From the IMG/VR virus record IMGVR_UViG_3300031555_005249: a stretch of 64,000 nucleotides of DNA; one strand, 5' to 3'. Source of the stretch: a virus. Below the pieces are notes generated by a model, which saw nothing but the letters and a program-made list of their open reading frames with translations, was not told the origin of the DNA and ran no database searches. The position numbers and the translations under genes are program-made. The stretch's first letter is position 1; each line of letters begins with the position of its first letter. Of the stretch, positions 29,092-58,033 are shown piece after piece.

Positions 29092-30453
29092 ATGCACAAA
29101 TCAGTTGCTACGATAAACTCTCCTGAGTTTATCAATTTAAAACCACTTGATATTAATCCTTTAATGTCTGCATGTGAAATTAAAGTTTTGTATGTTGGCG
29201 AAAATCGTAATAGGTCATATATAACCAAGGATGTTGCAACCGAAATGGCTAAGACATTACGAGGTGCGCCTATTGTAGGTTATTATAAAGAAGACATTGG
29301 AGACTTTAGAGACCACGGACAAGAAGTTATTATTGATAACGATGGGATTAAATTTAATTGCAAAACTGTTCCTTATGGTTTTGTAGCTCCAGATGCAAAG
29401 GTATGGTTTAAAGAATTTGAAGATACTAATGACTTTGGAGAAACTATTTTGAGAGAATATCTTATGACTACAGGATATTTGTGGACTGGCCAATTTGAGG
29501 AATGTAAATCTGCTGTTGAGGGCGATGGCAAGCCGCACTCGATGGAATTAGATGAAGCAACCGTTAAAGGACATTGGGAAACAAATACCAAAGGCATGGA
29601 TTTCTTTATTATAAATGACGCAATTTTTTCAAAACTTTGCATTTTGGGCGACGATGTTGAACCTTGTTTTGAAGGCTCAAGCATAAAAGCACCAAATGTT
29701 AGTGCGTCTTTTACGAAAGTAGATGATACTTTCAGACAAACATTATTTACTATGATGCAGGATTTAAAGACTGCATTAGGAGGAGGTCAGCAAATGATAG
29801 ACGCTATCGTCGATAATGCTGTAGTTGAAGAGCCTATTGTAGCGCCTGCGGCAGAACCTGCTGCGGAACCTATTATCGAGCCTGAAACTCCAGTAGAACC
29901 TTCTTTTGCTGCATCACAAGAGCCAGCTGTTGATACACCTGCAGTGGTTGAAGAGCCTGCGGCAGAACCTGTCGTAAATCCTGAAGACCCTGCTCCTGTA
30001 GATCCTGAACCGGCGCCCGCGCCTTCAATAGAAGAGCAGTTTACTGCACTTCAGCAGGAACTTGAGGAAGAAAGAACTGCACACTCTGCGCTTGCAGAAC
30101 AGTATGCGCTACTTCAATCTCAGTATAATACCCTTTCAGCTGAGCACCTAGAACTTGTTGAATTTAAAAGACAAAGTGACGATGCAAAGAAAGACGAAAT
30201 GATTGGAAAATTCTATATGCTTAGCGATGAAGATAAGGCAGAGGTCTTATTTAATAAAGCTAATTACACTGTAGAAGAAATTGAAGAAAAACTTTCTGTA
30301 ATTTGTTTCAGAAAAAAGGTCAATTTTGAATTAGAGGATAACTCTAAAAATAATAATAAAGTAGAGCAACCACCTGTGACATTTAATATGTCCAACCCTG
30401 GTGCTTCAATGCCTGCTTGGTTACAAGCAGTTGAAAATGCAAAAAATAAATAA
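29092..30453 (+). CDS. prohead protease (HK97-family) fused to scaffold domain
   Basis: N-terminal region is HK97-type prohead-protease-like. The C-terminal half is Pro/Ala/Glu-rich followed by a coiled coil (EEQFTALQQELEEERTAHSALAEQYALLQSQYNTLSAEHLELVEF). No TAG across 453 codons. RBS GAGGAGAGGAG. Confidence 0.6.
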   Translation: MHKSVATINSPEFINLKPLDINPLMSACEIKVLYVGENRNRSYITKDVATEMAKTLRGAPIVGYYKEDIGDFRDHGQEVIIDNDGIKFNCKTVPYGFVAPDAKVWFKEFEDTNDFGETILREYLMTTGYLWTGQFEECKSAVEGDGKPHSMELDEATVKGHWETNTKGMDFFIINDAIFSKLCILGDDVEPCFEGSSIKAPNVSASFTKVDDTFRQTLFTMMQDLKTALGGGQQMIDAIVDNAVVEEPIVAPAAEPAAEPIIEPETPVEPSFAASQEPAVDTPAVVEEPAAEPVVNPEDPAPVDPEPAPAPSIEEQFTALQQELEEERTAHSALAEQYALLQSQYNTLSAEHLELVEFKRQSDDAKKDEMIGKFYMLSDEDKAEVLFNKANYTVEEIEEKLSVICFRKKVNFELEDNSKNNNKVEQPPVTFNMSNPGASMPAWLQAVENAKNK

Positions 30454-30473
30454 TTTTAAGGAGGACATATAAC

Positions 30474-30971
30474 ATGGCTACTATTAAGCGTGTTGGATTT
30501 GGTCAAGTCGAGCCTAATCATCTTTCCGCTCAAAGAAATGGTCAAGTTTACGCTTCTCTTCCTTGCAATAAGGATATTGCAATCCTTGAAAATGGTCAGT
30601 TTGTAAAATATGACTATGCAAAGAATGAAGTTAACTTTACTGGCGAAGGCGAGTGGATGCTCGTTATGAATGAAGTCAAGCTTTATGATGACTTCTGGAG
30701 AGAGTCTTACAAAGATTTTGCTCTTATTAAAGATAATTATAATAATGGTGTTATGGCGCCTAGAGTTTTAAAGACTATGCCTGGCGACATTTACACAACA
30801 AACTGCCTTGAGGACGCTAATACCTCTGGCAAAGCTACTTTCACTGGCACAGAGGAAATTGAGGTTGGCACTGAGCTCAAGATCAATGCTAAAGGTTTCC
30901 TTTCTACTAATGGAACTAGCGATATTGTATTCCAAGTTGTAAAAGTTTACACAATGCCTGATGGCCAATAG
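30474..30971 (+). CDS. head decoration / minor capsid protein
   Basis: 165-codon ORF between the protease-scaffold and major capsid genes. No TAG. RBS AAGGAGG. Confidence 0.45.
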   Translation: MATIKRVGFGQVEPNHLSAQRNGQVYASLPCNKDIAILENGQFVKYDYAKNEVNFTGEGEWMLVMNEVKLYDDFWRESYKDFALIKDNYNNGVMAPRVLKTMPGDIYTTNCLEDANTSGKATFTGTEEIEVGTELKINAKGFLSTNGTSDIVFQVVKVYTMPDGQ

Positions 30972-31016
30972 GGCGTCAAGGTTATGCGTATTAAATAATA
31001 AGGGAGGGATATAGTA

Positions 31017-32069
31017 ATGGCATTAGATAGAAATAGTTTATTTACATTAGGTCACCGCGTTGCTGACGCTAATCCTTCTGCTCCCGTTGCTTATTCTTTT
31101 GAGGATAAGAGTTATAGCTATGCAGATTTAAATAATGCTTTCCGTGCAGAGCTTAAGGATCTTATTGGTACATATGCTCTTTGGAGAGAGAACCATAATA
31201 CAGTTTATACTCTTATGGAGGAAATTATCACTGATAAGCTTCCTGCTAAAGTAATGCAACAATATGGCGCATTTGCTGAAGTTAAGACATATCGTCAAGG
31301 CGAAAAGCCTGTATTCGTTCAGAGAATTACCGAGGCTTCCAAGAGACGTGCAAAGCAGTTTATTGCAATGCCTGCAGGTCTTGCTGGTCGTTATGAGGTC
31401 TTTAAGCTTGATGGACGTAGCTACGAAGTAAAGACTTCTGCAATGGGTGCAGCATGTCAGATCGCTATTGAGGAATTCCTTGATGGTAGAATTGATATGG
31501 CTACAGTTCTTGATATTGTTATGGAAGGTATGGATGATAAGATCTATGCTGAAATCGCAAATGTTCTTATCGCTGCTGTTGAGAATATTCAAGATGCTAA
31601 CAAGGTTCTTGCTGATAGCTTCGTTGAGGCTGAAATGGACGCTCTTCTTGCAGTTGCGGACACTTATGGAAACGGTAGATCGACGATTTATTGTACATTT
31701 GAGTTTGCTTCTCAAATGCTTCCTGACAATGCTTGGGATCAAGGAAGAATGTCTGATAGTATGAAGGATGAGTACTGGAGAAATGGTCGTCTTGCAAACT
31801 ACAAGAACCATCAAGTCATCGTTCTTCGTCAATCTTTTGTTGATGAAACAAATACTGAAAAGGTTATCGATCCTTCATATGCTTGGATTATTCCTGGCGG
31901 CGCTGAGAAGCCAATCAAGATCGCTTTCGAAGGTGATACAATGATTAAAGAAGAAGATAATGAAGACTGGTCTAAGAGCATCCACTTCTATAAGAAGGTT
32001 GGCGTTGCGGCTATGATCAACAATGATATCTGTGTTTATAAGAACAGATCTCTTAAGAAAACCAGATAA
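31017..32069 (+). CDS. major capsid protein (HK97-fold candidate)
   Basis: 350-codon ORF directly after protease/scaffold and decoration genes. No TAG. RBS AAGGGAGGGA. A terminator hairpin follows. Confidence 0.6.
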   Translation: MALDRNSLFTLGHRVADANPSAPVAYSFEDKSYSYADLNNAFRAELKDLIGTYALWRENHNTVYTLMEEIITDKLPAKVMQQYGAFAEVKTYRQGEKPVFVQRITEASKRRAKQFIAMPAGLAGRYEVFKLDGRSYEVKTSAMGAACQIAIEEFLDGRIDMATVLDIVMEGMDDKIYAEIANVLIAAVENIQDANKVLADSFVEAEMDALLAVADTYGNGRSTIYCTFEFASQMLPDNAWDQGRMSDSMKDEYWRNGRLANYKNHQVIVLRQSFVDETNTEKVIDPSYAWIIPGGAEKPIKIAFEGDTMIKEEDNEDWSKSIHFYKKVGVAAMINNDICVYKNRSLKKTR

Positions 32070-32752: not shown

Positions 32753-33229
32753 ATGCCAGTAACATCAACACCTTTTTCCGTAGTGCATGATAGATTTTTA
32801 TCGAAAATAACTGACGATATGTATATGGAAATTACTCCAGAAGAAACCGCCGCAGCATTGAATGAGCTTCTTGATAGCGCAATACCGTGGTTTGAATTTC
32901 CTAGGGTTAATTTAAACGATAAAACAAATGAAGTATTTAATGCTTCATTAAGTGATGAAGAAATTAATATTCTTGCTATATATATGATAGTCGAATGGAT
33001 TGGATATCAATTGGCTAATATTGAATTGATTCGTATGAAGTATAGTGGAAGTGATTTTAAATTTACTTCTCAAGCTAATCATATGCACAAGCTTAAAGAT
33101 ATGCAAAAGGAATATGAAAGAAAAGGATTCCATTTGCAAAGACTTTATAAACGGAGAAAAGCAGATAGTAAAGGTATTATGAAATCTACTTTTGGAAGTA
33201 TTATGGAATCTTCTTTTAAGGAGGACTAA
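32753..33229 (+). CDS. hypothetical head-tail connector-region protein
   Basis: ORF-track ORF, RBS AAGGAGG, no TAG. Confidence 0.5.
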   Translation: MPVTSTPFSVVHDRFLSKITDDMYMEITPEETAAALNELLDSAIPWFEFPRVNLNDKTNEVFNASLSDEEINILAIYMIVEWIGYQLANIELIRMKYSGSDFKFTSQANHMHKLKDMQKEYERKGFHLQRLYKRRKADSKGIMKSTFGSIMESSFKED

Positions 33230-35914: not shown

Positions 35915-36838
35915 ATGCAATTTGGTATTAGAGAAATATGCGACGTCGTATTTAAGGCTAAAAATGCTGGAAACCTTGGTTCCTTTAAGTATGTTGCAGG
36001 ACAGCCTGTTCTTTATATTGACAGCGCAAAAACTTCCACAATGGAAGGCGCAGCTACCACTGTTTATGCTCAGGGTGGTAAGGGTAATGCGCGTTTGATC
36101 GCTTGGGAAGGTGAGAGAACTCTTACTTTCACGGTTGAAGACGCACTTCTTTCTGAGCTTGGATTTGCTATTCTTTCTGGCGCTGGTCTTTTAAAGGCTG
36201 GTGAAAAAGTTGGAGAGAATACTCATGTTGCTCATGTTCATTCTACTTCTAGAACTGTTATTGGTACAGATGGAAAAATCGATCTTAGTGATGTTCTCGG
36301 TGAGAATGAAACTATCGATGAAGCTTCTCCTGTTTTTGTTATGCTAATGGAGCATGGTTCGCTTAAGAATATTCTTACTGGTTGCACTATTGCAGAAGAT
36401 GGTAAATCAATTACTGGACCCATCCAAATGGACGGTGAGACGGCGGTTGAAGCAGATGTCTTTGTTGACTTCTATATTCAAAAGACAGCTGGTGTTACAG
36501 AAATGACTATTGATATGGAGAACTTTGCAGGTTATTATTATGTTGAAGCATCTACTCTCTTTAGACGTCAATCTGACGGTAGAGACTTACCTGCTGAGCT
36601 TATTTTCCCGAACGTTAAAATTCAATCTAACTTCACATTCTCAATGGCTTCTACTGGTGATCCTTCTACATTTACATTCACAATGGATGCAATGCCTGGA
36701 TACACTCGTTTTGATCGTTCTAAGAAAGTTCTTTGCGCAATGCAAGTTGTTGACGAAGATACTAGCGATGACAAGGATCCTGATAAAGATTCTGCTGATT
36801 TGATAGCAGATGCAGAAAAACTTTATCCTATTGCTTAA
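35915..36838 (+). CDS. major tail protein (candidate)
   Basis: 307-codon ORF, no TAG, strong RBS AAGGAGG, acidic C-terminus. A strong terminator follows. Position upstream of chaperone and tape-measure genes. Confidence 0.5.
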   Translation: MQFGIREICDVVFKAKNAGNLGSFKYVAGQPVLYIDSAKTSTMEGAATTVYAQGGKGNARLIAWEGERTLTFTVEDALLSELGFAILSGAGLLKAGEKVGENTHVAHVHSTSRTVIGTDGKIDLSDVLGENETIDEASPVFVMLMEHGSLKNILTGCTIAEDGKSITGPIQMDGETAVEADVFVDFYIQKTAGVTEMTIDMENFAGYYYVEASTLFRRQSDGRDLPAELIFPNVKIQSNFTFSMASTGDPSTFTFTMDAMPGYTRFDRSKKVLCAMQVVDEDTSDDKDPDKDSADLIADAEKLYPIA

Positions 36839-36864: not shown

Positions 36865-36895
36865 AAGGCGGTGGGTGGTCCACCGCCTTTTTATT
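36865..36895 (+). terminator. rho-independent terminator
   Basis: Hairpin GGCGGTGG-gtggt-CCACCGCC followed by TTTTTATT. Confidence 0.6.
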
Positions 36896-36915: not shown

Positions 36916-38676
36916 ATGAGTAAGCTTGGAGATTATATTCATGTTAGCTGGAAAAATTATCGATTATATGGTACTACTAAACAAGGCCCTAGTAATTTTG
37001 ATCCTATGATTTTTGCTCATCATAGAACAGAGGTTGCGCGCGAAATTTTAAAAACTAAAGAAATAAATAATATTGCAAAATTAGAATAGCAATACAATAG
37101 TGGAGCAAAAAAGTTAAATTCATTTATATCTAATGTTATTGCACATAAAAATGATAATAAAGATTTTTTAACTTAGCTTTTAAGTATTATTAGTAAAAAT
37201 TATAAATCTATTTCAGATTATATTATAAAAGGATTAAAATGGGATCCTCATAGAGAATGCATTATTTATGATCCTGAAATTACTACTGAAGCATTAAAAG
37301 CGGATGAAGTAAATGCGCAAAAAACAATGCAAAATTTTCAACGACAATCTGGTATACATATCGACCCATTGGTAACGCATCTATAGTCAATAAAAAGTAA
37401 ATTATCAAAATTAAATGAAAGTTCTTTAAAAATTGGATTATTAGCTACTTGTCAAAGTTACATTTTATCTTTGCAACAAGCGAAAGGTGAAGATAGTTTA
37501 TTAGCAGATTCAATTAGGGTAATTACTCGTGGTAAGGTACAAGGCGGTTTTTTATCAATAGCAGAAGAAACAAAATAGGGGAAAAAAGGTTTTTTAAATG
37601 GATTTTTAGCTGATATTTAGAAGCTAACTGCATAGTCATTGAGCGCAATTAGAATTTAGAATAATATTGGAGCAGAATTAGCAGAAATTATGGGTACTGT
37701 TATTAGTGAAAATCTTAATAATCTTTCTAGAACTGCGCTGGAAGAATATTTTAAGTCATTCGTTAATTCTAATAAAACTACTATGGGGCGCGCAATGACG
37801 AAAGCTTGGACAAAAAAAGTAAATGGAAATATGACGGGCGCAGGTATTGGATCTATTGAATTAAATTTAGATAATATTGATTTAGGAACTTTATTTGATG
37901 ATAAAAACTCTCATAGAAAAGCTATTCAAAAATATGAGTCTAAAAAAACGGGAGAAATTAGTTACTCAATTGAATCTTTTTCTGATACAGTTTAGCAAAA
38001 AGCGGATTTCATTGTTACTTTAAAAGATAATACACAATTTGGAGTGTCTATGAAAAATTATGATATGTCTGATATTTCAGCTATTGAAACAAAAGTTGGA
38101 ACAAAAATTCCTAATAGCATTGCTTTACAGGATTCTAGTTTAGCTTTATATCTAGGAGCATTAGAATTGAAACACAAACCTGGAAACTTAGGCAATCATT
38201 ATTTATAGATTTTAAGCCAATAGAGAGGATATGAGAATGGAAAATATGCGGCTGAAATATAGCGAATGCGTACGTAGGCTAATCAAGCTTTATCTTTATA
38301 TATTTTATGGAGCGCAATGACTGGGCGCGGTCAGGGTAGAGGTTTTAGTAATTAGTTTGCTGATATTTTAGCTATTTATGATAAAGCAGATAAATTTGCT
38401 GCTATAACTGGTTTTAGAAGAATTCGTTTATATAGCATGAGAGATATTTTAAAAGATATTATGACTATGACTCAGGATTCTTTTAATTAGGTGGCAATAT
38501 TTACACCTCGTATTTCTCAAATTCTATTAGATAATAAAAGGGTAGGTGATAAACCTGATTTTGCATTGGCAAAAGAGCGTATTTCTAAATTAGTTATTCA
38601 TGCAAAATCATAGAATATAGCGGTTTCTTTATCTAAAATATATCTTAATACTATTGCAGGTATTTCTTATAAATAA
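36916..38676 (+). CDS. large hypothetical tail-region protein (~586 aa), TAG-recoded (about 17 TAG)
   Basis: ATG 36916 (RBS AAAAGGAGG) is in frame with ORF-track ORF 37690..37995 and continues to a TAA at 38674. Only TAG interrupts the frame. Confidence 0.45.
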
Positions 38677-39380: not shown

Positions 39381-42300
39381 ATGGCTAATTAGGAAAGAAT
39401 TAATTTCTAGGTTGGTTTTAATGTAGATTAGTCTGGTTTAAATTAGTTAAAAACAAGTTTATCTAATTTATAGAATATGAAACCAGCGGACTTAACTAAT
39501 ATTAAAAATTTGGCTGAGGCTAAAAAAGAATTATCTATTATTCAACAAGAGGCTAAGAAAGTATAGAATGCACTTGAAGCTAGTTTTAATCCTACGTTAG
39601 GCACGCATAACATTGATATTTTTAAACAAAAATTAATAGAAAATGGTGCTTCTATTTAGGATATAAAAAATAAATTTGCATCTGCGGGTGCCGAAGGTAC
39701 AACTGCATTTAGAAATTTAGCAACAGCAATTTCATCAACTAAATTACCGCTTCAAGAGACACATAATTTATTGCGCTCTATGGGCACTACATTGATGAAT
39801 ACTATTAAATGGTCTATTGCATCTTCAGCTTTATAGACGATCACTTCTTCTGTTCAATAGGCATGGAATTATACTAAATAGCTAGATAAATCATTAAACA
39901 ATATTATGCTTGTTACTGATAAAAGCGCAGAGTCAATGGAGAAATTTGCGCGTCAAGCAAATAAAGCGGCTAGGGAATTAGGTAAAAGTACTAAAGATTA
40001 TGCCAATGCTGCTTTAATATATTACCAACAAGGTTTATCTGAAGAAGAGGTAAGAGCTAGAACAGAAACAACGCTGAAAGTTGCAAATGTTACGAAACAA
40101 AGCACAGAAATGGTTTCTGAACAATTAACCGCGGTTTGGAATGGTTATAAGGTATAGGCGCAAGAAGCTGAAGCTTATATCGATAAAATTGCAGTTGTAG
40201 CAGCAACAACCGCAGCCGACTTAGAAGAGCTCTCTACTGGTATGTCTAAAGTTGCTTCTGCGGCTAGCAATATGGGAGTTAATATTGATTAGTTAAATGC
40301 AATGTTAGCAACTGTTATTTCCGTTACGCGCCAGGCGCCTGAGTCTGTTGGTACAGCATTTAAAACCATTTTTGCTCGTATTAGTGATATTGAAGCGGGC
40401 TTAGATGCAGAAGCTACTCTTGGAGAATACACAAAACAAATGTCGCAATTGGGCTTTGATGTTTTAGATGCGAATAATAAACTACGCGATATGGGTAGCG
40501 TTGTTGAGGAAATTGGTAGTAAATGGAATACATTGTCGCGTGAACAATAGATTTCATTGGCATAGACAATGGCTGGTACTCGTCAGTATAATAATCTTTT
40601 AGCGTTATTTGAAAACTGGAGTATGTATGAGAAGTCTGTACGAGATTCTGCTACTGCAACCGGATTTTTACAAGAACAACAAGAAAAATATTTAGATTCT
40701 GTTGAAGCTCATTTAGAACAATTAAGCGCGGCAGGTGAGCGTGTATATGATGCTTTGTTTGATTCAAAAAGTACTAATAATCTTATTGATATTTTAACTG
40801 ATTTTGTTACATTTTTTGGTAATGCTATTGAATCAATAGGGGGCGGCGGTACTTTATTAATGGCTATTTTACCAGTAATGACTAAATTATTTTCTGGTAG
40901 TTTAGCATCTGGCATGGCTACATTTGTTACTAACATTCAAAATGCATAGCAGTCTGCTCAATCGCTGCGTGGATTATTAGAGAATATTAAAGAAATTCGT
41001 TTAAATGGGGATACTTTGACTTCTGATTATGATGAAAAAATTAGCGCTTTAAGAGAAAATTTAGTATTATTAAAGCAATAGGGTATTATTACAAATGAAA
41101 CTTTTAATAATTTAACAGATACTATTAATGCTTTTGCAAATGCAGCTAATGAATACGAGAAATCTATAGAAGCTTATGATCCTACTACAATAGGAGATTA
41201 GTATACAAAAATTTTATAGCGTGGCTTTAATATGCCTCCTGCTGGAAGTAAATCCTCTGTCACAGAAGAGTCTGCATAGCTTTATATAAATCGTTTATCT
41301 GAATATGCTCGTGAAAATCCATTTTCAAATGAAGATTTTATAAGAATGGAAAATTCAAGTGTTGAATATATGGATGCTTCTGCTGAAAATTCTTATAAGA
41401 GATTATATTTTGAGTTAGAGAATGTTTAGGCTGCATATAACGAAACTATAAAACGTGCATAGAATTTAACAAAAATTATTAACAATACATCATGGGATAA
41501 ATTTAAGCAAGAAGGAAGCCCTGCGGTTAAAAAGTTTAATGACGAACTTCAGCATACGTTAAATGATGTTAATAAAATTTCATAGTCTGGATTACTTTCT
41601 GGATAGGACTTAACTCATTTTAATAAATATGCGTCAGTATTAAAAGGATTTAATAAAGATACAAAAATTACTCAAGAATAGTTTGATCAAATATAGACAG
41701 CCGTGTCTGAAATTGAGCGTTTAACTAAACGCGCAATGGGCAAGGGCAATACAGAAGCTAAAAAGATGTAGCAATCTTTACGTGAGCTTGGCGCAGCGGG
41801 GGTTGAGGCAAAATCTACTATGGATTAGTTTGGTGTGGCTGCTGAAATGGCATTGCGTAAAGCTAACCTTGAAAAGCAAATTAATTCATTTATTCAATTA
41901 ACATCTAATATTAGTATGGCAATTTCTGCGTTGACAATATTGTCTAATTTAGGTTCTATTTGGAAAAATGAAGATTTAACTGTTGGAGAAAAACTGTTAT
42001 AGACATTATAGAATACTGTTACTACAATATCATTATTAAGTCCATTGATTACAGGTCTAATTAAATTATATAGTACCCATAATGCTAAACTTGCAGAAAA
42101 AAATATTTAGACTGCTCAAGAAATTGCTTTAACACAAATTTTAACAACATTAAAAGATAAAGAAGCTAATGCAGAAACTAAACTGTGGGCAGCCAAATGT
42201 TTAGTAGATTTAGCCGGGGATGAAATAAATGATGAACTACGCGAAGAAATTAATAATCATATTTTAAACGGTGAAGCATTAGATAATGAAACTATAGCAA

Positions 42301-45300: not shown

Positions 45301-48300
45301 TCATTAATTCGTTATAGGGACAAGAAAATGAATTAAATTTAGATAGTTTTAATATTTTTAAAAAGAATTTTTCATCTCAGGAAGAAGCTTTAAAACAGCT
45401 AATTTTAGGACATAAAGATTTATCGCATTTAATTACTGATAATACTAATGAACTTGAATATTTATAGAAAGCTTATGAGTCTTTAGGTAAAAGTGAATAG
45501 CTTGATAATTTAATAAAATAGTCATCTTTATTGTCAAAAAATATTAATTTAACTCGGTAGTCATTAGGACGTGATGTTCAGCTTGATAAGACAATTATTG
45601 AAGCTAATTTACAAAATGTTGCTACAAATATGCAAGCAACTGGCATTAAAGTTGACGCAGCTTTGTTTAGAAAAATGTTTGCTGCAGATGGAACTTTTGA
45701 TGCGAGTAGTTTAGTAGCGTTAGAAACATATTATGCTGAAAATGTATCAGAAATTATAAATAATCCTATTTTAAAAGAGAGTTGGAATAATTTATTTGAA
45801 GCGATAGAAAAATCATAGTCTAATTATGAAGAAAACTATAATGCATGGCTTGATAGTATTTATAATTCATTTGATAAAAATCTTGAAGTATTAGAAATAA
45901 AACTAGAATTAGCTTTTGATAAAACAGATTTTGAAAGAGCTTATAATGATTATATTAAAACTATTTATGATGATGATTATGTAAAAATAGGAGAAGTTTT
46001 ATTAGGAGATATTAATACTTATGCAGATGATATTAACAATATTAACGAAGCAATTAAGGGCCTCAATGAGGGATTAATAATTTCAGAGGAGACTTTTGAG
46101 AAATTTTCATAGCTACCTGCTGAAATTACTTAGGCTACTTATGATGCTATGGATGACAGTGCCAAAAAGTTTTATGATGAAGATACCTTAAAACTTCGTA
46201 CAGACATTTATACGTTAAAAGGTGCTGAAGAGAAAAAATAGGAACTTTTAAACCAGTTAATGGAAAAAGGTCTGTCCCTTGAAGAGGCGCGCGCCGCAGT
46301 TTATGACCATATTAATTCGTACTTAGATGATGTATCTAGTGCATATGAAACTTATATTGGATACCTTGAAGATATTTCAGAGATATTGGAACAATAGGTT
46401 TCTTTAAATGAATTACTTTATGGAGATAAAGCATTTAAATATTTAGATGGTTATTATAAATCTGCTTTAAGCAATCAAACGAAAATAACAGAAAAGCGTA
46501 GAGAAGATTATGAGACTTAGCTTAAAGAATATGAATTAGTAAAAGATAGCGAAGAATTGAGCCCAGAATAGGCTGAAAGATATTTAACTGCTCGCTCTAA
46601 TTATTTAAGTGAATTGGTTAATAAAGCTACTCTTATTACTGAACAATTTGCAAATGATGTCAAAGTAACCATTGCAAACTTTGAAGAAGAGGTATTTGGT
46701 AATACTGTTGCATCTCTTAAAGAAGAGTGGGAATGGTTCAAAGATATGAGTGATGATTATCTGGATTAGATTGATGCTGGCTATGGTATTGATGCTATTG
46801 AAATAGCTTTTGAAAAGGCATTATAGTCTACTAAATTATCTGTTAATGCGCAACAAAAACTAAATGATTTAAGAAATCTTGAATTAAAGGCTTTGCGCAA
46901 AAAGGATAAATTAACTCAATATGATTTAGATAGGGCGCAAAAGCGTTTAGACTTATTACAAGCAGAAATTGCTCTTCAAGAAGCTCAAGAAAACAAAACT
47001 CAAATGCGCCTAATGCGCGGAGCAGATGGTACTTATAGTTATCAATATGTTGCTGATTAGAGTAAAATTTTAGAATAGCAAGAAGCTTTAAATAAGGCGC
47101 AATAGGAACTAGTTAACTTAGACGAGGAAGAGTTGAAAAAGACTTTGGACAATGTAGCTTCTCTTTGGGAAGATTGGCAATAGACTGTCTCTGAAAAGAT
47201 TACTAGTGGCGAATGGGATAAGGAAGAAGATGCTCAAGAGTATACAGATAAATAGTTAGCGCGATTTAAAGATAGTTAGCTTCGAACAAAAGAGTTACTC
47301 GATAAGCTTGGCTGGAGTGCAGAAGATGCATAGATTAATTTAGGTTTAGATTATGAGTTAAGTGAAATTTTTACCTGGTTATAGTCAGATTGGGCCGAAA
47401 GTATGACCACTGCAGAAAGTACTTTTGCAGATAAGTCGCAAGAGATTATAGCTGAAATTTTTGCATCTAAAAAAGAAGCCGATGAACAACTAAATAATAT
47501 AAATATGGCTTTTAAAGGTATTTCGGATAATTTATTATCTGACACAGATGGTATTTTATCAAAATAGGAATAGGTTATTGAAAAATTAGAGGCAATACGT
47601 AAGGGTATATTAGGAGACGGAGAAGAAAAAACTGAAAGTCTACTATCTAGTATAAAAGGGTTAGAAGGTGCAATTTCAGAATACACTGGTACAATCGCTC
47701 AGACGGTTCAAGGGGCTATTAATAATGGATTAGGACTTTAGGGCGGTGGATCTCCTGATACCAATCTTAGTCTTAGTAAAAGTGATATTGAAGATGCTCA
47801 ATATTTTCTTAATAATAAAGGATTTACAGTTACAGATACAGTATCGACTTCTGGTGGTGCAAAACCTGGAGACACTAGCTTAACAATAACTGGAGAATTG
47901 GACTCAGGTACCGAAGAAGCGATTAAAGAGTATTAGCTCCGAATGGGATTAGCTCCTACTGGTAAATTAGACGCTCAAACTTGGGAGGCAATGAAGAAAG
48001 ATCCAGAATGGGAAAAATCCAGTGGAATTAATGATGCAGGTTCCGATCATCTTGATTTTATTGACAATGAATAGAATATAAAAGATTTGGCGCGTACTTT
48101 AACTGAGATGGGTCATGGTTTGTTTTACGAGGATTTAACAACATATACGGGCGCTCTTAGAGACATGGTGGCAAAGATTCAAGAAAGAGCTGGTTTACCT
48201 GTCACTGGTTTAATGGATAAAAATACCTAGTAGTTAATTGAAAGAATAGGCTCTTATTAGACTGCTACTAGATTAAAATAGTATAATGAAATGTTTAATA

Positions 48301-48809
48301 AGAATTATTCATCATGGGCAGCTCTCAATCAAAGTGGAGATTTATCTAAAAACATAACGCAAAACCAAAACTCAAATGATAGAAGTGGAGTATATTTAGA
48401 TAATGCTGAAGAGGTTCTCAATTTTACAGAACTTTATAATAATTATAGACGATTATCTAAGTTTGATACTGGTGGTTACACAGGAGACTGGGGCGCCGAG
48501 GGCCGACTTGCGATGCTTCATGAGAAAGAAATAGTTCTCAATAAACAAGACTCTTCGAATTTCCTTGATGCACTTGATATTCTCCGCACTTTAAATCTTT
48601 CGATGGTTGATTAGATGGCGAATTACAATTTTGGTTTTACGCATTCTCAAGCGGCATGGGAAGCGCTTAATAGTTCGACTATTGAATAGATTGTTAATAT
48701 TAATGCGGAGTTCCCGAATGCTACTGACAAGGACGAAATTAAAGAAGCTTTTGAAGACTTGGTTAATTTAGCATTGTAGTATACAGGTAAGAATTCTCGA
48801 GTTAAATAA
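39381..48809 (+). CDS. tail tape-measure protein (3142 codons), heavily TAG-recoded (on the order of 100 TAG)
   Basis: ATG 39381 with RBS AAGGAGG. All ORF-track pieces 39906..40157, 40302..40550, 40569..40949, 42975..43421, 43722..44219, 45630..45818 and 48291..48614 lie in frame 0. Stretches I translated between them contain only TAG, with no TAA/TGA. Contains a TP901-family tape-measure core (ELSTGMSKVASAASNMGVNID[TAG]LNAMLATVISVTRQAPESVGTAFKTIFARI), Gly/Ala-rich putative TM segments, a peptidoglycan-binding-like repeat (EEAIKEY[TAG]LRMGLAPTGKLDAQTWEAM) and the C-terminal tape-measure motif (FDTGGYTGDWGAEGRLAMLHEKEIVLN). TAA stop at 48807-48809. Confidence 0.75.
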
Positions 48810-48915: not shown

Positions 48916-51900
48916 ATGAGTAATAAATATGCTGATAATTTATTTCAAGCTATTGAAAAAATAGCCAATACTAATTCAACTTGGAGAGTTGTTACTGGTG
49001 AAATCGTAAATTGCACTGCATATATTGATGGACAATACGTTTATAAAGTGCGGTATGAAGGAAATATAAGAACCGTTAATACTCCTTTGAGTTTGGCAGA
49101 AGGCGATTTAGTTAGACTAGGAGTAGATAATACTAATACAATAAGCGGAGAGCAATGTTTTATTTTAGAGAAAATTATTTCTAATACATTGACAGAAACT
49201 CAAAAAATATCAAAATCATATACTAGAAAAGGAACTGTGCTTTCTATTGATGAAGAATTTGATTATTCCCCGCAAGAATTAGTATTATATGATATAGAGG
49301 TGCCTGATGATTCGATTATTTCTAAAGAAGAAATAAATAATTTAAATGTTAGTTTAAACGAAGAAGATTTTGACCATATAGTTTTAAGTTTAAATTATAC
49401 TTCGGCAATAGCTTCTACGAAAAATAGAGCATTGGTGGTTACTATAAAAGATGACTCAAAGCCCGCGAAAGAGATTCTAATAACTCTATCATTTTTATAG
49501 ACTTCTTTAATTCAAAAAGAAGTTGCTTAGGTTAGTGAATTTATAAAAACAGAAGGTAGAATCTATACTATTACCAAAGTTGTGTTAAAGGGTCTTGAGG
49601 AAGGAGACAAAGTATCTAATATCAACATTTATTGCGCCAAAAAGAAAGAAACTTCTGATTTGTTTGAGGTTATTATCAAGGCGCGTGATGGGTTAACTTT
49701 TGTCTAGAATGATGTTGATTCAATCTAGGTCAGCGCCTATTTATAGTTTAAAGATGCAGGTTTTAGCTAGGCTTTTGATAATAGTAATGTAACGTATGCA
49801 CTTTATGCATATAATGGTGCAGACACTTGGATTCAAAAAATAGCTCCAGGTACAGAAACTACATTTAGTATTCAACGCGATTGGATTTTTAATCAAACAA
49901 GAAAATTTAAAGTTGTTATTAGATACAATGGAGAGGATTTCGAAAAAGAGTTTACTGTTCGTAATTTAGCGGCGTCAAAGATTGACGTTATTGTTAGCTC
50001 TTCTCAATAGAATAAGGATTATTATCTTGATGATAATGTTATATTAATAGGTAGTCCTGGAGAGGGTTATACTTACTCTTGGTATAAAGCCGATACATTA
50101 GGTGGAGAATGGAGCGAATAGTTTGGTAAGACGGATGCTTCACTTATAGTTCAGAATGCAGATATTGTGGATCAAGATGAGTATTTATTTGTCGTTTATA
50201 AGAATGTTGAATATGTGGGTGAAGCTTCGATATCAGTCTTTAACAAGTAGGCGCTTGAAAAAAGTATGATTTCTTTTAGTATTTAGTATTTATCTTCAAA
50301 AAAAGAGCCTAAAGAAGATACTGACGGTTGGCAAAATGAAATGCCAGAAAAAGAAAATGATAAATATATTTGGCAAAAAATAGAGCGAATTTATATTAAC
50401 GGATTAAAGTTGGTTTCTATTATTAATATAAGTGGCGCAGACGGAACACCTGGCGCGCCGGCGATTTCAATACAATCTAATGTTGAGACTTTAACTTTTA
50501 TTAAGTCAAGCATTGGCAATATAAGTCCTGCCTCAATAGGCTCTATTATAATTACAGTCAATAAAGGCGGGGTTGCAGATACAGTCACAAATTATTTTTG
50601 TAAATGGTATAAAGGTACTGATTCTAATATAATAAATTCTAATTTATCTTCTAATAAGAATATTGAAAATGGTATATTTACTTTGGATATTGAAAATATG
50701 GCTATTGGATAGGTTGTTTATAAAGTTGAGGTTTATCAAGGTGAAACCACCGCTACAGATCCTCCATTGATAGGAACTAAAACTATTACAATAATTTGTA
50801 ATGCAGCTCAAGTTAGTTATACTTTAGTTCCTGATAAGAAATAGATTACTATTACTTCTGAAATGCTAATTGATTCGTCTAAACTTCCAAAAGTGCGTTT
50901 AGACGTTTATAAAAATGAAGCCGGAATATCAACTCCTATTTTAATACAAGATATCAATAACTCAAAGATAGCGCCTAGTATCGAAATAAATGGTAGTAGA
51001 ACAATAACATCATTAGTCGAGGGTGAAACAGACTAGACTAAAATACGTTATTTTCAATACTCTATTACAGAAAATGATTTGAAAACTGCCGAAAATATAA
51101 TCTTTACTTTAAAAGTAGCTGACCAATTAAATACAACTGCTAAAGAATGGGATACCGAAACTTTAAGTTTTATTATTACAGTTGATAAAATAGAGCCATA
51201 GTACGCAGGAACTTTAACTTCAGCTTAGCCGGATATAGAATCAGATGCTATTGAGAACAGTGAGACAGAAAAGAGTTTAGTTCCAGGTGGTTGGTCTACA
51301 TCTCTTGATAAAGTCGTTCAACTTTCAGGTATTTTATATATTTGGTATCGAGAAAAAATATATTTTAGTAATGGAACATATGATTTTACCGATCCAAGAG
51401 TTGATAGTTCTGAAATGGCTTTAAGAGACTGGGCAGTAAGTGAAAATAAAACTTTAATTGATGGTTCAAAAATTTATACTGGATCCATTAGCGCTGATAA
51501 AATAAATGTTGATAATCTTAATGCGCTTGCCGCCGAAATTGGCGGTTGGAGTATAAATGACTATGGCATTTACAAAGACGATGGAGATAGTAAATCAGCA
51601 ATGGTTTCTACCTCTGGAGAATAGCGTTTTGCTTCTGGAGGTACTATAGCTTGGGAAAATATTATAAGTGGAATAGAGTGGGATAGCGATAGGGAAAATG
51701 TTATTATTACAACAGACGATACTCATAAATTTAAATTTTCTTTTAGATTTAAAGGTAGACCATATTCAATGCCTTATGAAGGTAAAATTGGAGAATAGGT
51801 GTTTTCTTATACTAATTTTCAAACTTGGTTATCTAACGTGTTTAATCCATAGTTAACACTATATTATAAATAGATTAATATTAATAATGGTGAACAAGAA

Positions 51901-53880
51901 GCTTCTTGGTAGTTATTAAATAAAAATGTATATAGCTTTGAATGGAAAGAGCCAAAACAAAATAAAATTGAATGCACTGGTTAGATAAATAATACAGCTG
52001 GTTTAAGCGGCGGTCTGATTTTAAAAGTAGTAGTCATATATAAGAATTATGATTTCTCTGGAATGACAAAGCCTACGTATGAAGTAACAGCAGATGGTAG
52101 TATGTCAGCAAAGTTAGGCTATATTGGTGGTTGGAAAATTGATGAAAATAGTATTAGTGTTGAGAATGAGAGTTTCTCCCTTATATCAGACGATAGTAGT
52201 ATGGGAATATCACTTTTAGGTGGAGGAAACTCACCGCACCGTATAGTTGTAGGCGGAAGCGGTGGAGGTGGCAGCGGTGATGGTGATAATAGCGGTGGCG
52301 ATGATAATGGTGGTAGTGGAGATTCTACTACTATAACAGTTTTAGTTTCGAAAGAGAAAAGCATAACTCTGTCAGCTTAGAAGACTGAAGCAAAACAATT
52401 TTTACATGAAGGTGTAGATAGTACGTTTATATTAAACTCAATAGAAGGAGAAGGGGGTTCTTATATTACTTCTATTGAATATAATCCTGATACTAAGTAG
52501 ATTACTGTCTATTATAGTAATCCAACCTCTTCAGATGCTTAGATAACTATTGGATATACTGTTCATACTTATTAGACTATACCAAATACAACTACGAGTA
52601 GTGCTAATTTAACTGCAAGTAGTAGTACTAGCTCAAGCAACTATACTTTTTAGTTATTAGCAGACGGTAGCCTGTATGCGAGCGCCGTAGATATTAAAGG
52701 TACTATTACTACAGAAAATGGATATATTGGTGGTTGGAATATCGGTCCAAATGGATTATACAGTCCCAAATTAGCATCTGGCTCAATATTTAGTTTAAAT
52801 AGTACTGGCATTGGTAGTTATGATTATCCTTTATTATAGTTACTTAGCTCTTTTAATATTCCTTCAGATATTAAAGATAGCATAAAATTAGAAGATTTGG
52901 GAGTACTTATAGAAAAGGAAGAATATATGTTAAAAGCATCAGCAAGATTTTCGTTCAATGGTCTTTCGGTAGACGAGTTTAATGCGCAGTATGGTTACAA
53001 TTTTACAGTTAGTATACGTAATGAAGGAGATTTTTAGTATATAACATTTACATATGGAGCGGAACTAAATGTTAAAACAGTAAAAATTGACATATTTGTT
53101 GATAATGTTTTTTCTACTTATTCTTTTGCCGTACTTCCTCGACATTTATATTATTCTACTGGAAATTTATCTGGTGACATCTACTATGGTGACTGGATTA
53201 TATTCGATGGCTTATATTTTCAAAACGGTTCTGACAATGGCGCGACTCCCTTTGGTACAAGTTTAAAATATATTGAAAGTGGTTATCCAACCATATTTTC
53301 TACAGCTACTGCTTTAAAAGAAGATCCTAACAGTGGAAATATAATAATATAGCCAGGGGAATATTTTACAGTTATTCTTAATCAAACAGTTTATTCTTCA
53401 TGGTCATGGACGCTTATTAAAAGGAAAGCTGATGAAAAGACAGTTTTTTTACTTACAGGTTCAAATGGCGATCCTCTTGCCTTTTTAGACTATAATGGTA
53501 ATTTATTTGCTCAAACTGTAAATTCAACAGGTAGTGACTAGAGAATAAAAAATTCGATTCAAGCTATTCCTTTTTAGTACGAAGAAGCTTATGATAATTT
53601 TGAACCTGTTATTTATAAATATAATGATGGAACCTCAGACAGATATCATACTGGTTTTATTGCACAACCAATGGCACAGGCGATCGAAGATGCAGGCTTA
53701 ACATTGCAAGATTTTGCTGCAGTATGCAAGCCAGCCTATGACGGTGGTACTTGGGGTATTCGTTATGGAGAAATTGTTTCGCTGAATACATGGCAAATTC
53801 AAAAAGCTAAAAAACGTATCACGGCACTTGAACAAGAAGTTTAGAATTTAAAAGATATAATTACTTCATTGGTTAAATAA
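48916..53880 (+). CDS. tail fibre / receptor-binding protein with C-terminal S74-type intramolecular chaperone domain, TAG-recoded; may comprise more than one gene
   Basis: ORF-track pieces 48916..49500, 50341..50712, 51415..51624 and 52063..52380 are all in frame 1. The interval I translated (49501-50340) contains only TAG. C-terminus ...YHTGFIAQPMAQAIEDAGLTLQDFAAVCKPAYDGGTWGIRYGEIVSLNTWQIQKAKKRITALEQEV matches the auto-cleaving chaperone (peptidase S74) of tail fibres. Gly-rich linker GGSGGGGSGDGDNSGGDDNGGSGD. TAA at 53878. Confidence 0.55.
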
Positions 53881-54317: not shown

Positions 54318-54650
54318 ATGGTTATTCAACAAAATTGTAATTTTATTGAAAATGCCAGTGCTCCTATTGTATCAAAAACATTTTCTAATGCGGCAAGCGA
54401 CACCTTAACGCTGCAAATAAGTGGCGCTAATGGTAAGTATTATCTTGAAGGACGCAATAATTCTATGGGTGACTGGTTTGCGCTCGCAGGTATTAGCTTA
54501 AGTGACTTCTCTGCCCACCGAGGAGTGTTTACAAAAGCTGGTATCTATGAGATTGGCGTAGTCGGTATTCGTGAAGTACGCGTACGAATAGAATCAGTAG
54601 AAGGAAATGTTTCTATTTTTGGACAAATGATAAGCACGGAGGAGACGTAA
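54318..54650 (+). CDS. hypothetical structural protein
   Basis: ATG 54318 with RBS TAGGAGG (the ORF track starts at the alternative TTG 54312). No TAG. Confidence 0.5.
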   Translation: MVIQQNCNFIENASAPIVSKTFSNAASDTLTLQISGANGKYYLEGRNNSMGDWFALAGISLSDFSAHRGVFTKAGIYEIGVVGIREVRVRIESVEGNVSIFGQMISTEET

Positions 54651-54651
54651 G

Positions 54652-55539: not shown

Positions 55540-55557
55540 AAGGGGTATAGATAAGAT

Positions 55558-56424
55558 ATGGCAAGAGAAAAAGGTACATTTCTAGTCTCAGCTAATTATG
55601 AGCCGCAAAAAGCTGCCCCATTCGATGCGCGGGCTTTGGTTGAAACTAAAGCAGATTTATTTGCGGCAAATACATGGGCTATAAATAACGAATTGTGGAT
55701 TTATAAAGGTATGATAGTTGCAGTTGCAACTGACATTGAGCCTAAAAACAATGGTATTTATATGCTCTTAGACGATGTAAATTATTTTAATGAAGATGCT
55801 TGGCTTAAAATGTCTGACTCAACCATGGACGGCGAGTCTGCTGGTGAGGTTCTAGGTCAATTAAATTCTTATAAAGAGACTAACGATGCGGTAGTTGCTG
55901 CTATCAATGGTAAGATTGGAACTCCTGGTGAGGGACAAAATGATGAAGGCGATACGCTTTATAGCTTAATTGCAGAAGCGCAAACTCAGGCTAATAAAGG
56001 TGTTGCCGATGCGAAGACAGCGAATGACGCAATTGCAGCGTTAACCAATGGCGCAATTGCTACTAATACATCTGACATTAGCGCAATTAAAGGTAGACTT
56101 ACTACTCTTGAGACAGAAGTTCTTCCTATTATCAATAAGCATAGTGATATTCTTGCAGGCATTGGCGGCGATGGTGAAAAAGCAACAGTTAAGGCATATG
56201 TTGATGATGCTATTGCAGCAATTCCTACTTATGAACTTCCTGCAGCTACTGCTGAAACTCTTGGTGGAGTTAAGTCTGCGGCTGATGTTGACGGGAAAGC
56301 AGTTACAAATGCAGTTTATGTTGATGCAACTAGCAATGTTGGTAGTGTAAAAACTATAAGCACAGATATATTAGTCCAAGGGGTCGAAGAGCTTATTCTT
56401 AATGGCGGTAGCGCCAAGGCTTAA
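55558..56424 (+). CDS. fibre-like structural protein (Ala-rich coiled segments)
   Basis: 288 codons, no TAG, TAA stop. RBS AAGGGGTATAGATAAGATATG. Confidence 0.5.
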   Translation: MAREKGTFLVSANYEPQKAAPFDARALVETKADLFAANTWAINNELWIYKGMIVAVATDIEPKNNGIYMLLDDVNYFNEDAWLKMSDSTMDGESAGEVLGQLNSYKETNDAVVAAINGKIGTPGEGQNDEGDTLYSLIAEAQTQANKGVADAKTANDAIAALTNGAIATNTSDISAIKGRLTTLETEVLPIINKHSDILAGIGGDGEKATVKAYVDDAIAAIPTYELPAATAETLGGVKSAADVDGKAVTNAVYVDATSNVGSVKTISTDILVQGVEELILNGGSAKA

Positions 56425-56518
56425 TTATAAGCCACTTAATATATAAAATATAAGACGCCTTAGGGTGACCTTTGGCGCCGATTAAATAAATTCATAATTT
56501 AAAGGAGATTTTAAAATT

Positions 56519-58033
56519 ATGGCGAAACAAATTAATACTCGTATCATGCTTAAGCATGATAGCTTAACTAATTGGAATGAATCCTCTATAGTTCTTAAGC
56601 CAGGTGAAGTTGGTATAGCATATGTAGATGTTACAACCACTGATGCCAAGGGCAATATTATTCATGTTCCTACTGCTCTTTTAAAAGTAGGTGAAAATGT
56701 AGAGAATTCTACCAAAACTTTTAAAGAGCTTCCCTTTATGTCTGCTATTGCAGCTGATGTTTATGCATGGGCAAAGAAGAGCGGAATTGAAGTAGTAGAC
56801 GAAGGAGAGGGAGAGGTTCTTTCTGATGTAACTTGGGAGAATGACAAACTCGTTCTTCATAGATTAGATGTTGTAACTCCAGCAGAACTTACAACGGCTC
56901 TTGGAAGTTACTATACAAAAGATGAAATTGATGGCAAGATTGAGGAAATCAGTCAGTCTATTTCGGACCTTGACGTATCTGCTCTTGAAGGTAGAGTTGA
57001 TGCAGTAGAGACTGCTGTCGAAACAACACTCCCTGGTCAAATCAGCGCAGTAGATGCAAAATTTGCAAGCTATACAACAACAGCTGCGCAACAAGCAATT
57101 GATGCGGAACAGGATCGTAGACTTGGCGTTATCGAGGGTGATTATGTAAAATCTGCTGATATTGCCAACTTTGAAACAAAAGAGAATGTTCAGAAGGTTG
57201 CAAACGATCTTGCAGGATATCAAACTTCTAATGACGCAGCTCTTGCAGCAGTAAAAGCAACAGCTGATGCGGCTGCAGTTAAGACTGAGGTTGAGACAGC
57301 TCTTGCTGATAGATATACTAAAACCGAGGCAGATGCTGCTTTTGATGCAAAAGGCAGTGCTGATCAAGCATTAACCGATGCTAAGGACTATACTGATACC
57401 CAAATTCAAGCTATCATGGGTGGAGAAGTCGATGAAGCTTATAACTCTTTCTTAGAGATTCAGAATTTCTTAAAGGCTGATGAAACTGCTACTGCTCAGC
57501 TTGTTGAAAAGGTAAATGCGAATGAGGCGGCCGCAGCTGCAGCTCAGGCAAAGGCTGATGCTGCACTTCCTACAGCTACCGCGGAGGCAGATTACTTAAA
57601 GAAAACAGATGCATCTACCATTTACGAGCCTATTGGTGCACAAGCTGCTGCAGAGGCTACTGCTAAAGGTTATACCGATACAGAGATTGCAAAGCTTAGC
57701 AATGTTTATGATGCTAAGGGTGCTGCTGCTGATGCACAGGCGGCTGCTATCGCAGATGCTGCGGGCAAGTATGAGACAAAAGGTACTGCTCAAGGTATTG
57801 TTGACGCTTTAAACCTTGCTCAAACTTATGAGCCTATTGGCGCAGAAGGTAGAGCTATTGCTGCGGCAAAGACTGAAACTGAGAACCAGATTGCAGCTCT
57901 TGGTATTGAAGATTATGCAAAGAGCGCAGATGTGGCTACTACATATCGCGCAAAGGCAGATAAGATTACTTCTGATGATCTCTCTGACGAAGTTTTCATC
58001 TTTAATTGCGGAACAGCATCTACTGTTATATAA
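56519..58033 (+). CDS. tail/head fibre protein with conserved N-terminal fibre domain (IMLKHDSLTNWNESSIVLKPGEVGIAYVD...) and long Ala-rich coiled coil
   Basis: 504 codons, no TAG, RBS AAAGGAG. A terminator follows. Confidence 0.55.
   Translation: MAKQINTRIMLKHDSLTNWNESSIVLKPGEVGIAYVDVTTTDAKGNIIHVPTALLKVGENVENSTKTFKELPFMSAIAADVYAWAKKSGIEVVDEGEGEVLSDVTWENDKLVLHRLDVVTPAELTTALGSYYTKDEIDGKIEEISQSISDLDVSALEGRVDAVETAVETTLPGQISAVDAKFASYTTTAAQQAIDAEQDRRLGVIEGDYVKSADIANFETKENVQKVANDLAGYQTSNDAALAAVKATADAAAVKTEVETALADRYTKTEADAAFDAKGSADQALTDAKDYTDTQIQAIMGGEVDEAYNSFLEIQNFLKADETATAQLVEKVNANEAAAAAAQAKADAALPTATAEADYLKKTDASTIYEPIGAQAAAEATAKGYTDTEIAKLSNVYDAKGAAADAQAAAIADAAGKYETKGTAQGIVDALNLAQTYEPIGAEGRAIAAAKTETENQIAALGIEDYAKSADVATTYRAKADKITSDDLSDEVFIFNCGTASTVI

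Follow-up and report, generated by a model that had tools for sequence, protein, structure and literature searches.

Genes of the late operon and their TAG content

The stretch analyzed here (the window) comprises 64,000 nucleotides of the IMG/VR virus record IMGVR_UViG_3300031555_005249, and the subject is the distribution of in-frame TAG codons among the genes of its late operon, where the capsid and tail tube genes carry none and many of their neighbors carry several to dozens. The window is AT-rich (35% G+C) and belongs to an SPbeta-like siphovirus of about 135 kb, a relative of phage phAss-1; a major capsid protein (MCP) identical to that of the window is also encoded on a contig of 135217 bp and is present in JGI samples 3300018495 and 3300024268 and in ENA ERZ27248446. 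Under the standard code, the right two-thirds of the window break into short open reading frames (ORFs). With TAG as a sense codon, a continuous + strand operon appears at 22779-63711 (30 genes; 202 in-frame TAG in 13141 codons), and the summed length of ORFs of at least 150 aa rises from 7565 aa to 17900 aa. For the recount, TAA and TGA were used as the only stops. The 30 late genes end with TAA in 21 cases and TGA in nine, and TAG was never used as a terminator. In the left 22 kb, genes were called heuristically, and no conclusion rests on those calls.

The alignments indicate that TAG is read as glutamine in the late genes, because TAG positions of the window align with Gln in non-recoded relatives. 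Gln was by far the commonest partner there (14/27 positions in relative L005 and 21/50 in L006), the partner profile was about the same as that of CAA/CAG positions, and in recoded relatives TAG swaps freely with CAA/CAG at aligned positions. At least one in-frame TAG was also present in nrdD (anaerobic ribonucleotide reductase) of the same phage, just past the right end of the window (positions 7057-7655 of locus L026), so recoding extends beyond virion genes.

Functions of the TAG-free proteins were taken from precomputed Pfam assignments on identical database proteins and from a structure model; sequence searches of these proteins against Pfam, NCBIfam and the PDB found nothing. The Pfam families on database proteins identical to those of the window are named after proteins of the Bacillus prophage SPbeta, and the head and tail module consists of YonG, YonD, YonB, YomW, YomV, YomU and YomO homologues in that order, as in relatives. 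A megablast search of the head module against GenBank phages gave a sole match of 261 bp, and a literature search on YonB/YomU turned up only unrelated papers.

All genes of the operon lie on the + strand. The first of the TAG-free genes (29092-30453; 453 codons, 0 TAG among 16 Gln codons) encodes a YonD-like protein (PF27290 YonD_N, phrog_3313), a putative prohead protease/scaffold with a Pro/Ala/Glu-rich linker. It is followed by a putative decoration protein gene (30474-30998), labeled from its position between the YonD-like and capsid genes, with strong codon bias. The preliminary description had counted this gene among those without TAG, at 165 codons, a length that applies only if the TAG at codon 166 stops translation. 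The frame runs through to TAA at 30998 (174 codons, 1 TAG), and the TAG is read through, because a variant strain has CAA/CAG (Gln) at that codon and the downstream GVKVMRIK is conserved.

The next gene (31017-32069; 350 codons, 0 TAG/11 Gln) belongs to the YonB family (PF27364) and has the strongest codon bias of the operon (CTT/Leu 0.81, AAG/Lys 0.88). Its product is identified, on the strength of a predicted structure, as the MCP, because the model matches HK97-fold capsids and encapsulins. The AlphaFold model (mean pLDDT 71.1) gave 198 PDB matches at E<=1e-3 to phage capsids and encapsulins, and its top Foldseek PDB matches were all phage capsid proteins, virus-like-particle shells or encapsulins at a probability of 1.00. 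Next to it lie a gene starting at 32132 or 32156 and ending at 32734 (200 or 192 codons, 0 TAG/5 Gln; below, 32132) and a small head-module gene (32753-33229; 158 codons, 0 TAG/4 Gln, P = 0.14). The tail tube gene (35915-36838; 307 codons, 0 TAG/8 Gln) is of the YomU family (PF27173 YomU_Tube, phrog_2729) and is strongly codon-biased.

Further downstream, zero TAG was counted in a XepA-like small protein gene (PF27453 XepA; 54318-54650; 110 codons, 4 Gln), which had been missing from the earlier list of TAG-free genes, and in two genes for Ala-rich fiber-like proteins. The first of these (55558-56424; 288 codons, 6 Gln) has moderate codon bias and a weak, sub-threshold Pfam Phage_head_fibr match, and the second (56519-58033; 504 codons, 19 Gln) has strong codon bias. 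The last TAG-free gene encodes a Gly-rich, membrane-like protein (phrog_16490; 63262-63711; 149 codons, 6 Gln), whose orthologues are likewise without TAG. Apart from the decoration gene and the omitted 54318, the earlier list of TAG-free genes (29092, 31017, 32156, 32753, 35915, 55558, 56519 and 63262) stood on recounting. A consensus scan also placed a terminator-like hairpin with a T run directly 3' of the tail tube gene (36870-36888, +) and a 12-bp hairpin with a T run 3' of the 56519 fiber gene (58052-58078, +); both are compatible with transcript ends or attenuators behind highly expressed genes.

TAG-bearing genes surround these. The large terminase gene (TerL, phrog_2; 25249-26997) has 8 TAG among 26 Gln codons (1 per 73 codons), and the portal gene (phrog_2739; 27521-29074) 8 among 22 (1 per 65). 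Protein 36916 (36916-38676) has 15 among 34 (1 per 39). The gene at 39381-48809 was assigned to the tape-measure protein (TMP) because its orthologues carry PF10145 PhageMin_Tail; under TAG-sense reading it is one ORF of about 3150 codons, 3142 from the start codon, with 82 TAG among 184 Gln codons (1 per 38), fewer than the roughly 100 first estimated. A tail fiber with a C-terminal Peptidase_S74 chaperone domain (PF13884, 38.1 bits; 48916-53880; 1654 aa) has 32 among 68 (1 per 52). Two baseplate-like (Dit/Tal-like) proteins, for which phrog_1887 tail protein is listed as a pair (58699-62267), differ in content: 58699-60054 has 3 TAG among 12 Gln codons (1 per 150) and 60057-62267 has 20 among 31 (0.65; 1 per 37). 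The spacing of one TAG every 15-80 codons initially given for TAG-bearing genes therefore describes TerL, portal, 36916, TMP, S74 fiber and 60057 and does not extend to 58699 or to gene 54652 (1 per 148). The remaining members of the module named by precomputed Pfam on identical proteins are YonG_N (PF27269, at 24033), YomW (PF27256, 34541), YomV (PF27211, 35082) and YomO (PF27287, 38758).

The first late gene (22779-23951) encodes a sigma-factor-like protein (phrog_5767, E=1e-43) with 2 TAG and is preceded by a perfect TG-extended TTGACA-17-TATAAT consensus at 22720-22748. A second perfect sigma-70 consensus (27424-27452) lies just upstream of portal, at the head of the portal-to-tube block. 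If late transcription needs the sigma-factor-like protein, the code switch could gate late transcription indirectly.

Endonuclease genes were also encountered. An HNH endonuclease gene (PHROGs; 27071-27427, 2 TAG) is inserted between terminase and portal, and a GIY-YIG/NUMOD3 homing-endonuclease-type gene (1910-2740, - strand) has 6 TAG among 16 Gln codons inside an otherwise TAG-poor region; in published work on another phage clade, an intron endonuclease is among the most strongly recoded families. At positions 3165-5951 of the relative L107, an HNH_3/NUMOD1 endonuclease ORF separates the terminase gene into two ORFs of 206 and 381 aa, an arrangement that resembles an intron or intein insertion.

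Statistics of the partition and its recurrence among relatives

The nine TAG-free genes hold 79 CAA/CAG and no TAG in 2519 codons, and in the other 21 genes TAG accounts for 202/519 Gln codons (39%). The probability of 0 TAG in 79 Gln codons was 7e-15 at the pooled rate and 2e-12 with TMP excluded from the rate; over 20000 simulations, TAG-free genes never held more than 53 Gln codons, versus 79 observed. Tabulated per codon, TAG use was thus related to the gene (P from 1e-12 to 1e-15), and the capsid and major-tail genes were TAG-free on recount. Individually, the zero was significant for 56519 (P = 9e-5), 29092 (P = 4e-4), 31017 (P = 4e-3) and 35915 (P = 0.02). It was not for 32132, 32753, 54318, 55558 and 63262 (P 0.05-0.14), because these small genes have too few Gln codons (4-6 each).

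Five of the nine genes could thus be free of TAG simply through having few Gln codons, or through a base composition that disfavors TAG, and the fact that 32753 orthologues carry TAG points the same way. As an account of the whole set, chance or composition is barely credible. Canonical Gln codon density was equal (3.1% in TAG-free versus 3.0% in TAG-containing genes), with a pooled P <=1e-12; in the two other frames TAG was equally frequent (18.3 and 17.1 per 1000 codons for the TAG-free genes, 25.2 and 16.8 for the rest), so that the effect is specific to the coding frame; T is still favored over C at Leu codons of the same genes; and the pattern replicates across the family. This explanation was therefore rejected for the set, and it stays valid for 32753 and, taken singly, for 54318, 55558 and 63262. 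For 32753 the zero in the window is a matter of chance, because its orthologues carry TAG at the ordinary rate (103/373), in most relatives. With TAG counted, total Gln was 4.9% in TAG-containing genes and 3.2% in TAG-free genes, so that TAG adds extra glutamine; TAG may be a mutational sink through which weakly constrained proteins gain Gln.

A neutral benchmark was provided by Leu codons, since the pairs CAG/TAG and CTG/TTG both differ by a first-position C/T transition. In TAG-rich genes the TAG:CAG ratio (201:47) was about that of TTG:CTG (102:20; Fisher P = 0.67). In TAG-poor genes TAG:CAG was 1:24 versus TTG:CTG 15:2 (P = 2e-8), the first-position preference for T over C being intact at Leu. 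TAG in low-copy genes is effectively neutral, at the mutation-pressure level of an AT-rich genome, and because the two ratios agree, the high TAG content of terminase, tape-measure, fiber and baseplate genes needs only mutation pressure. The nucleotide following TAG did not differ significantly from that following CAA/CAG in a test for read-through-favoring context (P = 0.08).

This benchmark bears on the idea that read-through is imperfect and that TAG density has been positively selected in low-copy genes, to set stoichiometry or delay completion. TAG number does run inverse to expected copy number (TMP 82, S74 fiber 32, 60057 20, portal 8, capsid 0), a read-through of 95% would bring the TMP yield to about 1.5%, near a plausible TMP-to-capsid ratio, and TAG/Gln in 60057 (0.65) exceeds the pooled 0.39. 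With TAG:CAG at the neutral value, however, there is no excess to explain; TAG/Gln varies little (0.25-0.47) among low-copy genes whose copy numbers differ widely, so that TAG number mostly tracks length; and from one relative to another, TAG and CAA/CAG freely replace each other. Positive selection of this kind is accordingly considered very doubtful. A fuller version, in which TAG is a graded attenuator whose yield falls exponentially with TAG count and so sets the stoichiometry of co-transcribed genes, while abundant proteins are uncoupled from the suppressor and shells and tubes accumulate regardless, is regarded as unlikely.

Relatives were collected by an IMG/VR profile scan with an MCP alignment and from assemblies of other sources, which gave 85 MCP-centered loci, each extending up to 10 kb to either side. 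Loci were classed by in-frame TAG in orthologues of non-abundant genes, and of the 82 that could be classified, 63 were recoded and 19 non-recoded. Dereplication at 90% MCP identity left 43 recoded lineages, which are not fully phylogenetically independent, although TAG and CAA/CAG turn over quickly even between close relatives. Fiber genes were left out of the recoded-relative comparison, as no recoded homologues were located: 60057 and 55558 gave no relatives in IMG/VR scans, the scan with 56519 gave only distant, non-recoded phages, and tblastn with the 56519 fiber found nothing.

Across the recoded lineages, TAG/Gln was lowest for decoration (6/424, 1.4%; zero TAG in 38/43 lineages) and MCP (9/565, 1.6%; zero in 35/43), followed by tail tube (11/229, 4.8%; zero in 19/27), YomO (23/180, 13%; zero in 14/26), 32132 (28/193, 15%; zero in 25/39), YonD-like (120/754, 16%; zero in 11/41) and portal (201/1172, 17%; zero in 1/43). 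All other genes ranged from 28 to 47%, TerL standing at 326/979. MCP, decoration and tube were jointly below the local background in 43/43 lineages, down to 46% MCP identity, and pooled they had 26/1218 versus 1979/6430 in neighbors (odds ratio 0.049, P=6e-134). Exceptions occur. A mid-gene TAG was present in the capsid gene of 8/43 lineages, among them the close relative L114 at the invariant Gln148, and TAG was found in the decoration gene of 5/43 and the tube gene of 8/27; such rare TAG were commoner as background TAG use rose (rho 0.42, P = 0.005). The depletion is thus old, conserved and graded, and it is not absolute. The grouping into abundant and low-copy proteins made in the preliminary description was partly right: it does not fit 32753, given the TAG in its orthologues, and YonD-like genes are only moderately depleted.

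The same comparison addresses whether the TAG-free genes arrived from a standard-code phage too recently for TAG to have built up in them. Their G+C (0.39-0.44 versus 0.29-0.35) and codon use do differ from those of the other genes, and recoded and non-recoded members coexist in the family. Such mosaicism is nevertheless very improbable, and recent horizontal acquisition was ruled out by synteny, comparable divergence and recurrence in all lineages. The genes sit in five separate places among TAG-rich genes; they share the synteny of their neighbors and a similar divergence, with identities to the relative L002 of 78-89% versus 63-91% for neighbors; the depletion recurs in all 43 lineages, down to 46% MCP identity; and interchange of TAG with CAA/CAG, which is fast between close relatives, would have equilibrated old acquisitions. 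As a separate observation, recoded and non-recoded loci of the YonB capsid family (L114-L189, L002-L008, L107-L110) intermingle at similar MCP identity (46-60%), suggesting that recoding was gained or lost repeatedly within one phage family.

Codon bias and the proposed decoding cost or timing

TAG-poor genes differ from the other window genes in more than TAG. Synonymous usage differed significantly at 15/18 degenerate amino acids. C-ending two-fold codons were raised in TAG-poor genes (TTC 0.30 vs 0.11, ATC 0.23 vs 0.06, AAC 0.25 vs 0.11, CAC 0.37 vs 0.11, GAC 0.27 vs 0.17), as were CTT (0.55 vs 0.19) and AAG (0.46 vs 0.23), and ATA, GGG, AGG and CGA were rarer; the direction is that typical of translational selection. 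The capsid gene stood out most, with decoration, tube and 56519 next in order, and in two non-recoded phages the homologues of the 56519 fiber gene rank among the genes with the strongest codon bias at their loci. Per-gene TAG/Gln was negatively correlated with indices that do not involve Gln, namely the share of C-ending (NNC) codons (rho -0.57, P = 0.001) and CTT/Leu (rho -0.64, P = 1e-4), and relatives behaved likewise.

The NNC share of capsid, decoration and tube genes exceeded that of neighbors in 19/19 non-recoded loci (0.36 vs 0.19) and in 40/43 recoded loci (0.27 vs 0.15). Because the bias is present in all 19 non-recoded relatives, it is independent of recoding, and it is probably older. 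Phage head and tail genes are known to be biased to host-preferred codons (PMC2266997). Protein-level constraint was ruled out as the cause, since TerL, the most conserved protein of the module (91% identity to L002), is TAG-rich.

The preferred explanation, to which a probability of about 0.75 is given, is that expression-linked purifying selection removes suppressor-dependent TAG from abundant virion genes. TAG would act as a third synonymous Gln codon whose decoding requires a suppressor tRNA in competition with the release factor of the host. Where expression is weak (terminase, tape measure, S74 fiber, baseplate, connectors), it would be nearly neutral and would have drifted to the C-to-T mutation level. 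In the most translated genes (capsid, decoration and tube, and here also YonD-like and 56519), each TAG would slow translation or leave some of the protein truncated; the cost would scale with expression, and purifying selection would purge TAG like other poor codons. We infer expression level as the source of the bias, and competition by release factor 1 or limiting suppressor tRNA as the source of the cost. Selection against suppressor-dependent decoding, one of two readings offered in the preliminary description, is well supported by the codon bias, by 43/43 recoded and 19/19 non-recoded relatives and by neutral TAG elsewhere. A lower sensitivity of abundant proteins to the suppressor level follows from this explanation and is no rival to it.

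Several points weigh against this explanation. The description of genes as highly expressed draws on function (capsid, tube) and on codon bias itself. Capsid and tail tube proteins are of high copy number in tailed phages, and 'abundant' is firm only for these two; for the fiber-like, 32132 and 63262 proteins we infer it. The hint as to the host is the contig of one relative that was binned in a metagenome-assembled genome of Eubacteriales. The window yielded no canonical tRNA(CUA). The 82 TAG of TMP demand very high read-through (0.99^82 = 0.44; 0.95^82 = 0.015), and such high read-through per codon makes it less plausible that a few TAG would be costly. The 32132 protein is TAG-poor across relatives without clear NNC bias. 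A crAss-like 'tail tube' family is reported to prefer TAG (bioRxiv 10.1101/2021.08.26.457843), so the rule is not universal across gene names.

The second reading in the preliminary description was a two-tier or temporal program, in which TAG-free structural proteins are made before or without the suppressor and low-copy proteins await the code switch. The capsid, YonD-like, tube and fiber genes of the window are indeed translatable by the standard code, the perfect promoter consensus at 27424-27452 precedes the portal-to-tube block, and the early-type genes at 11.7-21.2 kb are also TAG-free, which fits the published early/late partition model. Yet mid-gene TAG interrupts the capsid gene in the 8/43 lineages noted above (L114 included), with decoration and tube likewise affected in 5/43 and 8/27, and the decoration gene of the window itself has a TAG that is read through. 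The TAG-free genes lie among TAG-bearing genes of the same strand, with gaps of 18-77 nt. Head assembly cannot start without the portal, whose gene has 8 TAG. Non-recoded relatives, which have no code switch, show codon bias in the capsid, decoration and tube genes as well. In its strict form the program is unsupported by the capsid TAG, the interleaving and the portal, and overall it is judged improbable.

If TAG is purged by expression-linked selection, the depletion implies a measurable fitness cost of suppressor-dependent TAG decoding even in well-adapted recoded phages, and the efficiency of read-through has a lower bound given by the 82 TAG of a single gene. The code switch does not gate the whole late program, since the most abundant proteins stay compatible with the standard code. 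Standard-code gene callers predict the capsid and tube genes of recoded phages intact, and for this reason these appear full-length in databases while their neighbors are fragmented. Per-gene TAG/Gln is usable as an expression proxy in uncultured recoded phages.

Suppressor tRNA candidates and comparison with known recoded phages

ARAGORN, and Rfam at the gathering score, returned no tRNA(CUA) in the window, and no suppressor tRNA was found in 10 kb past the right end, in about 1 kb past the left end, or near and upstream of nrdD in close relatives, a search that did not reach about 70 kb of the source genome. A tRNA-like gene at 16513-16584 (- strand), missed by ARAGORN, was detected with permissive filters only (Rfam tRNA, 38.9 bits; gathering 29). 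Its anticodon loop, CACUAU, has CUA central in 6 nt (8 nt should the closing A-U pair open) and lacks both U33 and a purine at 37; an extended -10 element, TGGTATAAT (TGnTATAAT), lies about 17 nt upstream, and the 3' CCA is encoded. From these features it may be an unusual amber suppressor. The exact anticodon arm had no copy in IMG/VR.

A second tRNA (13241-13312, - strand; Rfam 44.6 bits) has an 8-nt anticodon loop, UUUCGUUU, for which ARAGORN gave the four-base anticodon 'tcgt'. It has no encoded CCA, and a G+C-rich hairpin lies just upstream. An 8-nt anticodon loop is a hallmark of +1 frameshift suppressor tRNAs. Both tRNA-like genes fall in a block at about 11700-21300, called heuristically, of small genes mostly on the - strand (G+C 0.36-0.47; C-ending share of two-fold codons 0.33-0.65). 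The block is essentially without in-frame TAG (one, in the small ORF 17568-17906) and looks like an early or host-like module compatible with the standard code.

Gut phages of code 15 (TAG-to-Gln) underlie the model of Borges and colleagues in which a code switch regulates late genes (bioRxiv 10.1101/2021.08.26.457843; Peters et al., PMC9523058). The window phage resembles them in that in-frame TAG stands for Gln and is concentrated in structural genes, in its TAG-free early-type block, in the presence of recoded and standard-code members in one family, and in the differing preference of gene families for TAG over CAA/CAG. The published emphasis is on early genes that avoid recoded stops and lysis-associated families that prefer them, and the text never mentions capsid genes (bioRxiv 10.1101/2021.08.26.457843). 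Here, by contrast, the signal is a depletion in the most abundant late proteins, and the tail tube gene is depleted, unlike the crAss-like 'tail tube' family reported to prefer TAG. The proposed gate, by which structural and lysis genes need read-through, holds for 21/30 late genes of the window and fails for the capsid, YonD-like, tube, 32132, 32753, XepA-like, two fiber-like and 63262 genes; abundant late proteins escape it because their genes are TAG-depleted.

Among described phages the nearest is phAss-1 (OQ749652), of the proposed Phassvirus and its wider monophyletic group, which was published as a gut phage with TAG-to-Gln recoding and three suppressor tRNAs (Babkin et al. 2023, PMC10607447). 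Its MCP is 46% identical, and like the window phage it has a siphovirus-type gut genome of about 135 kb. TAG is shared in terminase, portal, tape measure and fiber genes, and the capsid orthologue has 0 TAG. phAss-1 is of a different genus-level lineage with a different synteny, and its three canonical tRNA-Sup(CUA) genes lie by nrdD, where none was found here; their loops are the canonical CUCUAAA, unlike that of 16513-16584. The phAss-1 paper lists TAG-containing ORFs without comment on late genes that lack TAG (PMC10607447).

Structural genes biased to preferred codons, as here and in the non-recoded relatives, were described by Lucks et al. 2008 (PMC2266997) for standard-code phages with known hosts and host-derived indices, whereas the codon avoided here is a reassigned stop. 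In a 2026 preprint, Ibrahim et al. (10.64898/2026.08.21.746148) state that the MCP gene of an amber-reassigned member of the Crassvirales 'shows no alternative codon usage' and mention pressure on capsid genes to conform to the translational preferences of the host. That statement is a single sentence on one genome of an unrelated order, with no statistics, other genes, relatives or codon-bias comparison. The phenomenon and its likely cause are thus already anticipated in the literature, and no new mechanism is put forward; what is new is the case of an SPbeta-like family, the gene gradient over 43 lineages, the link to a bias that is independent of Gln, and the neutral benchmark.

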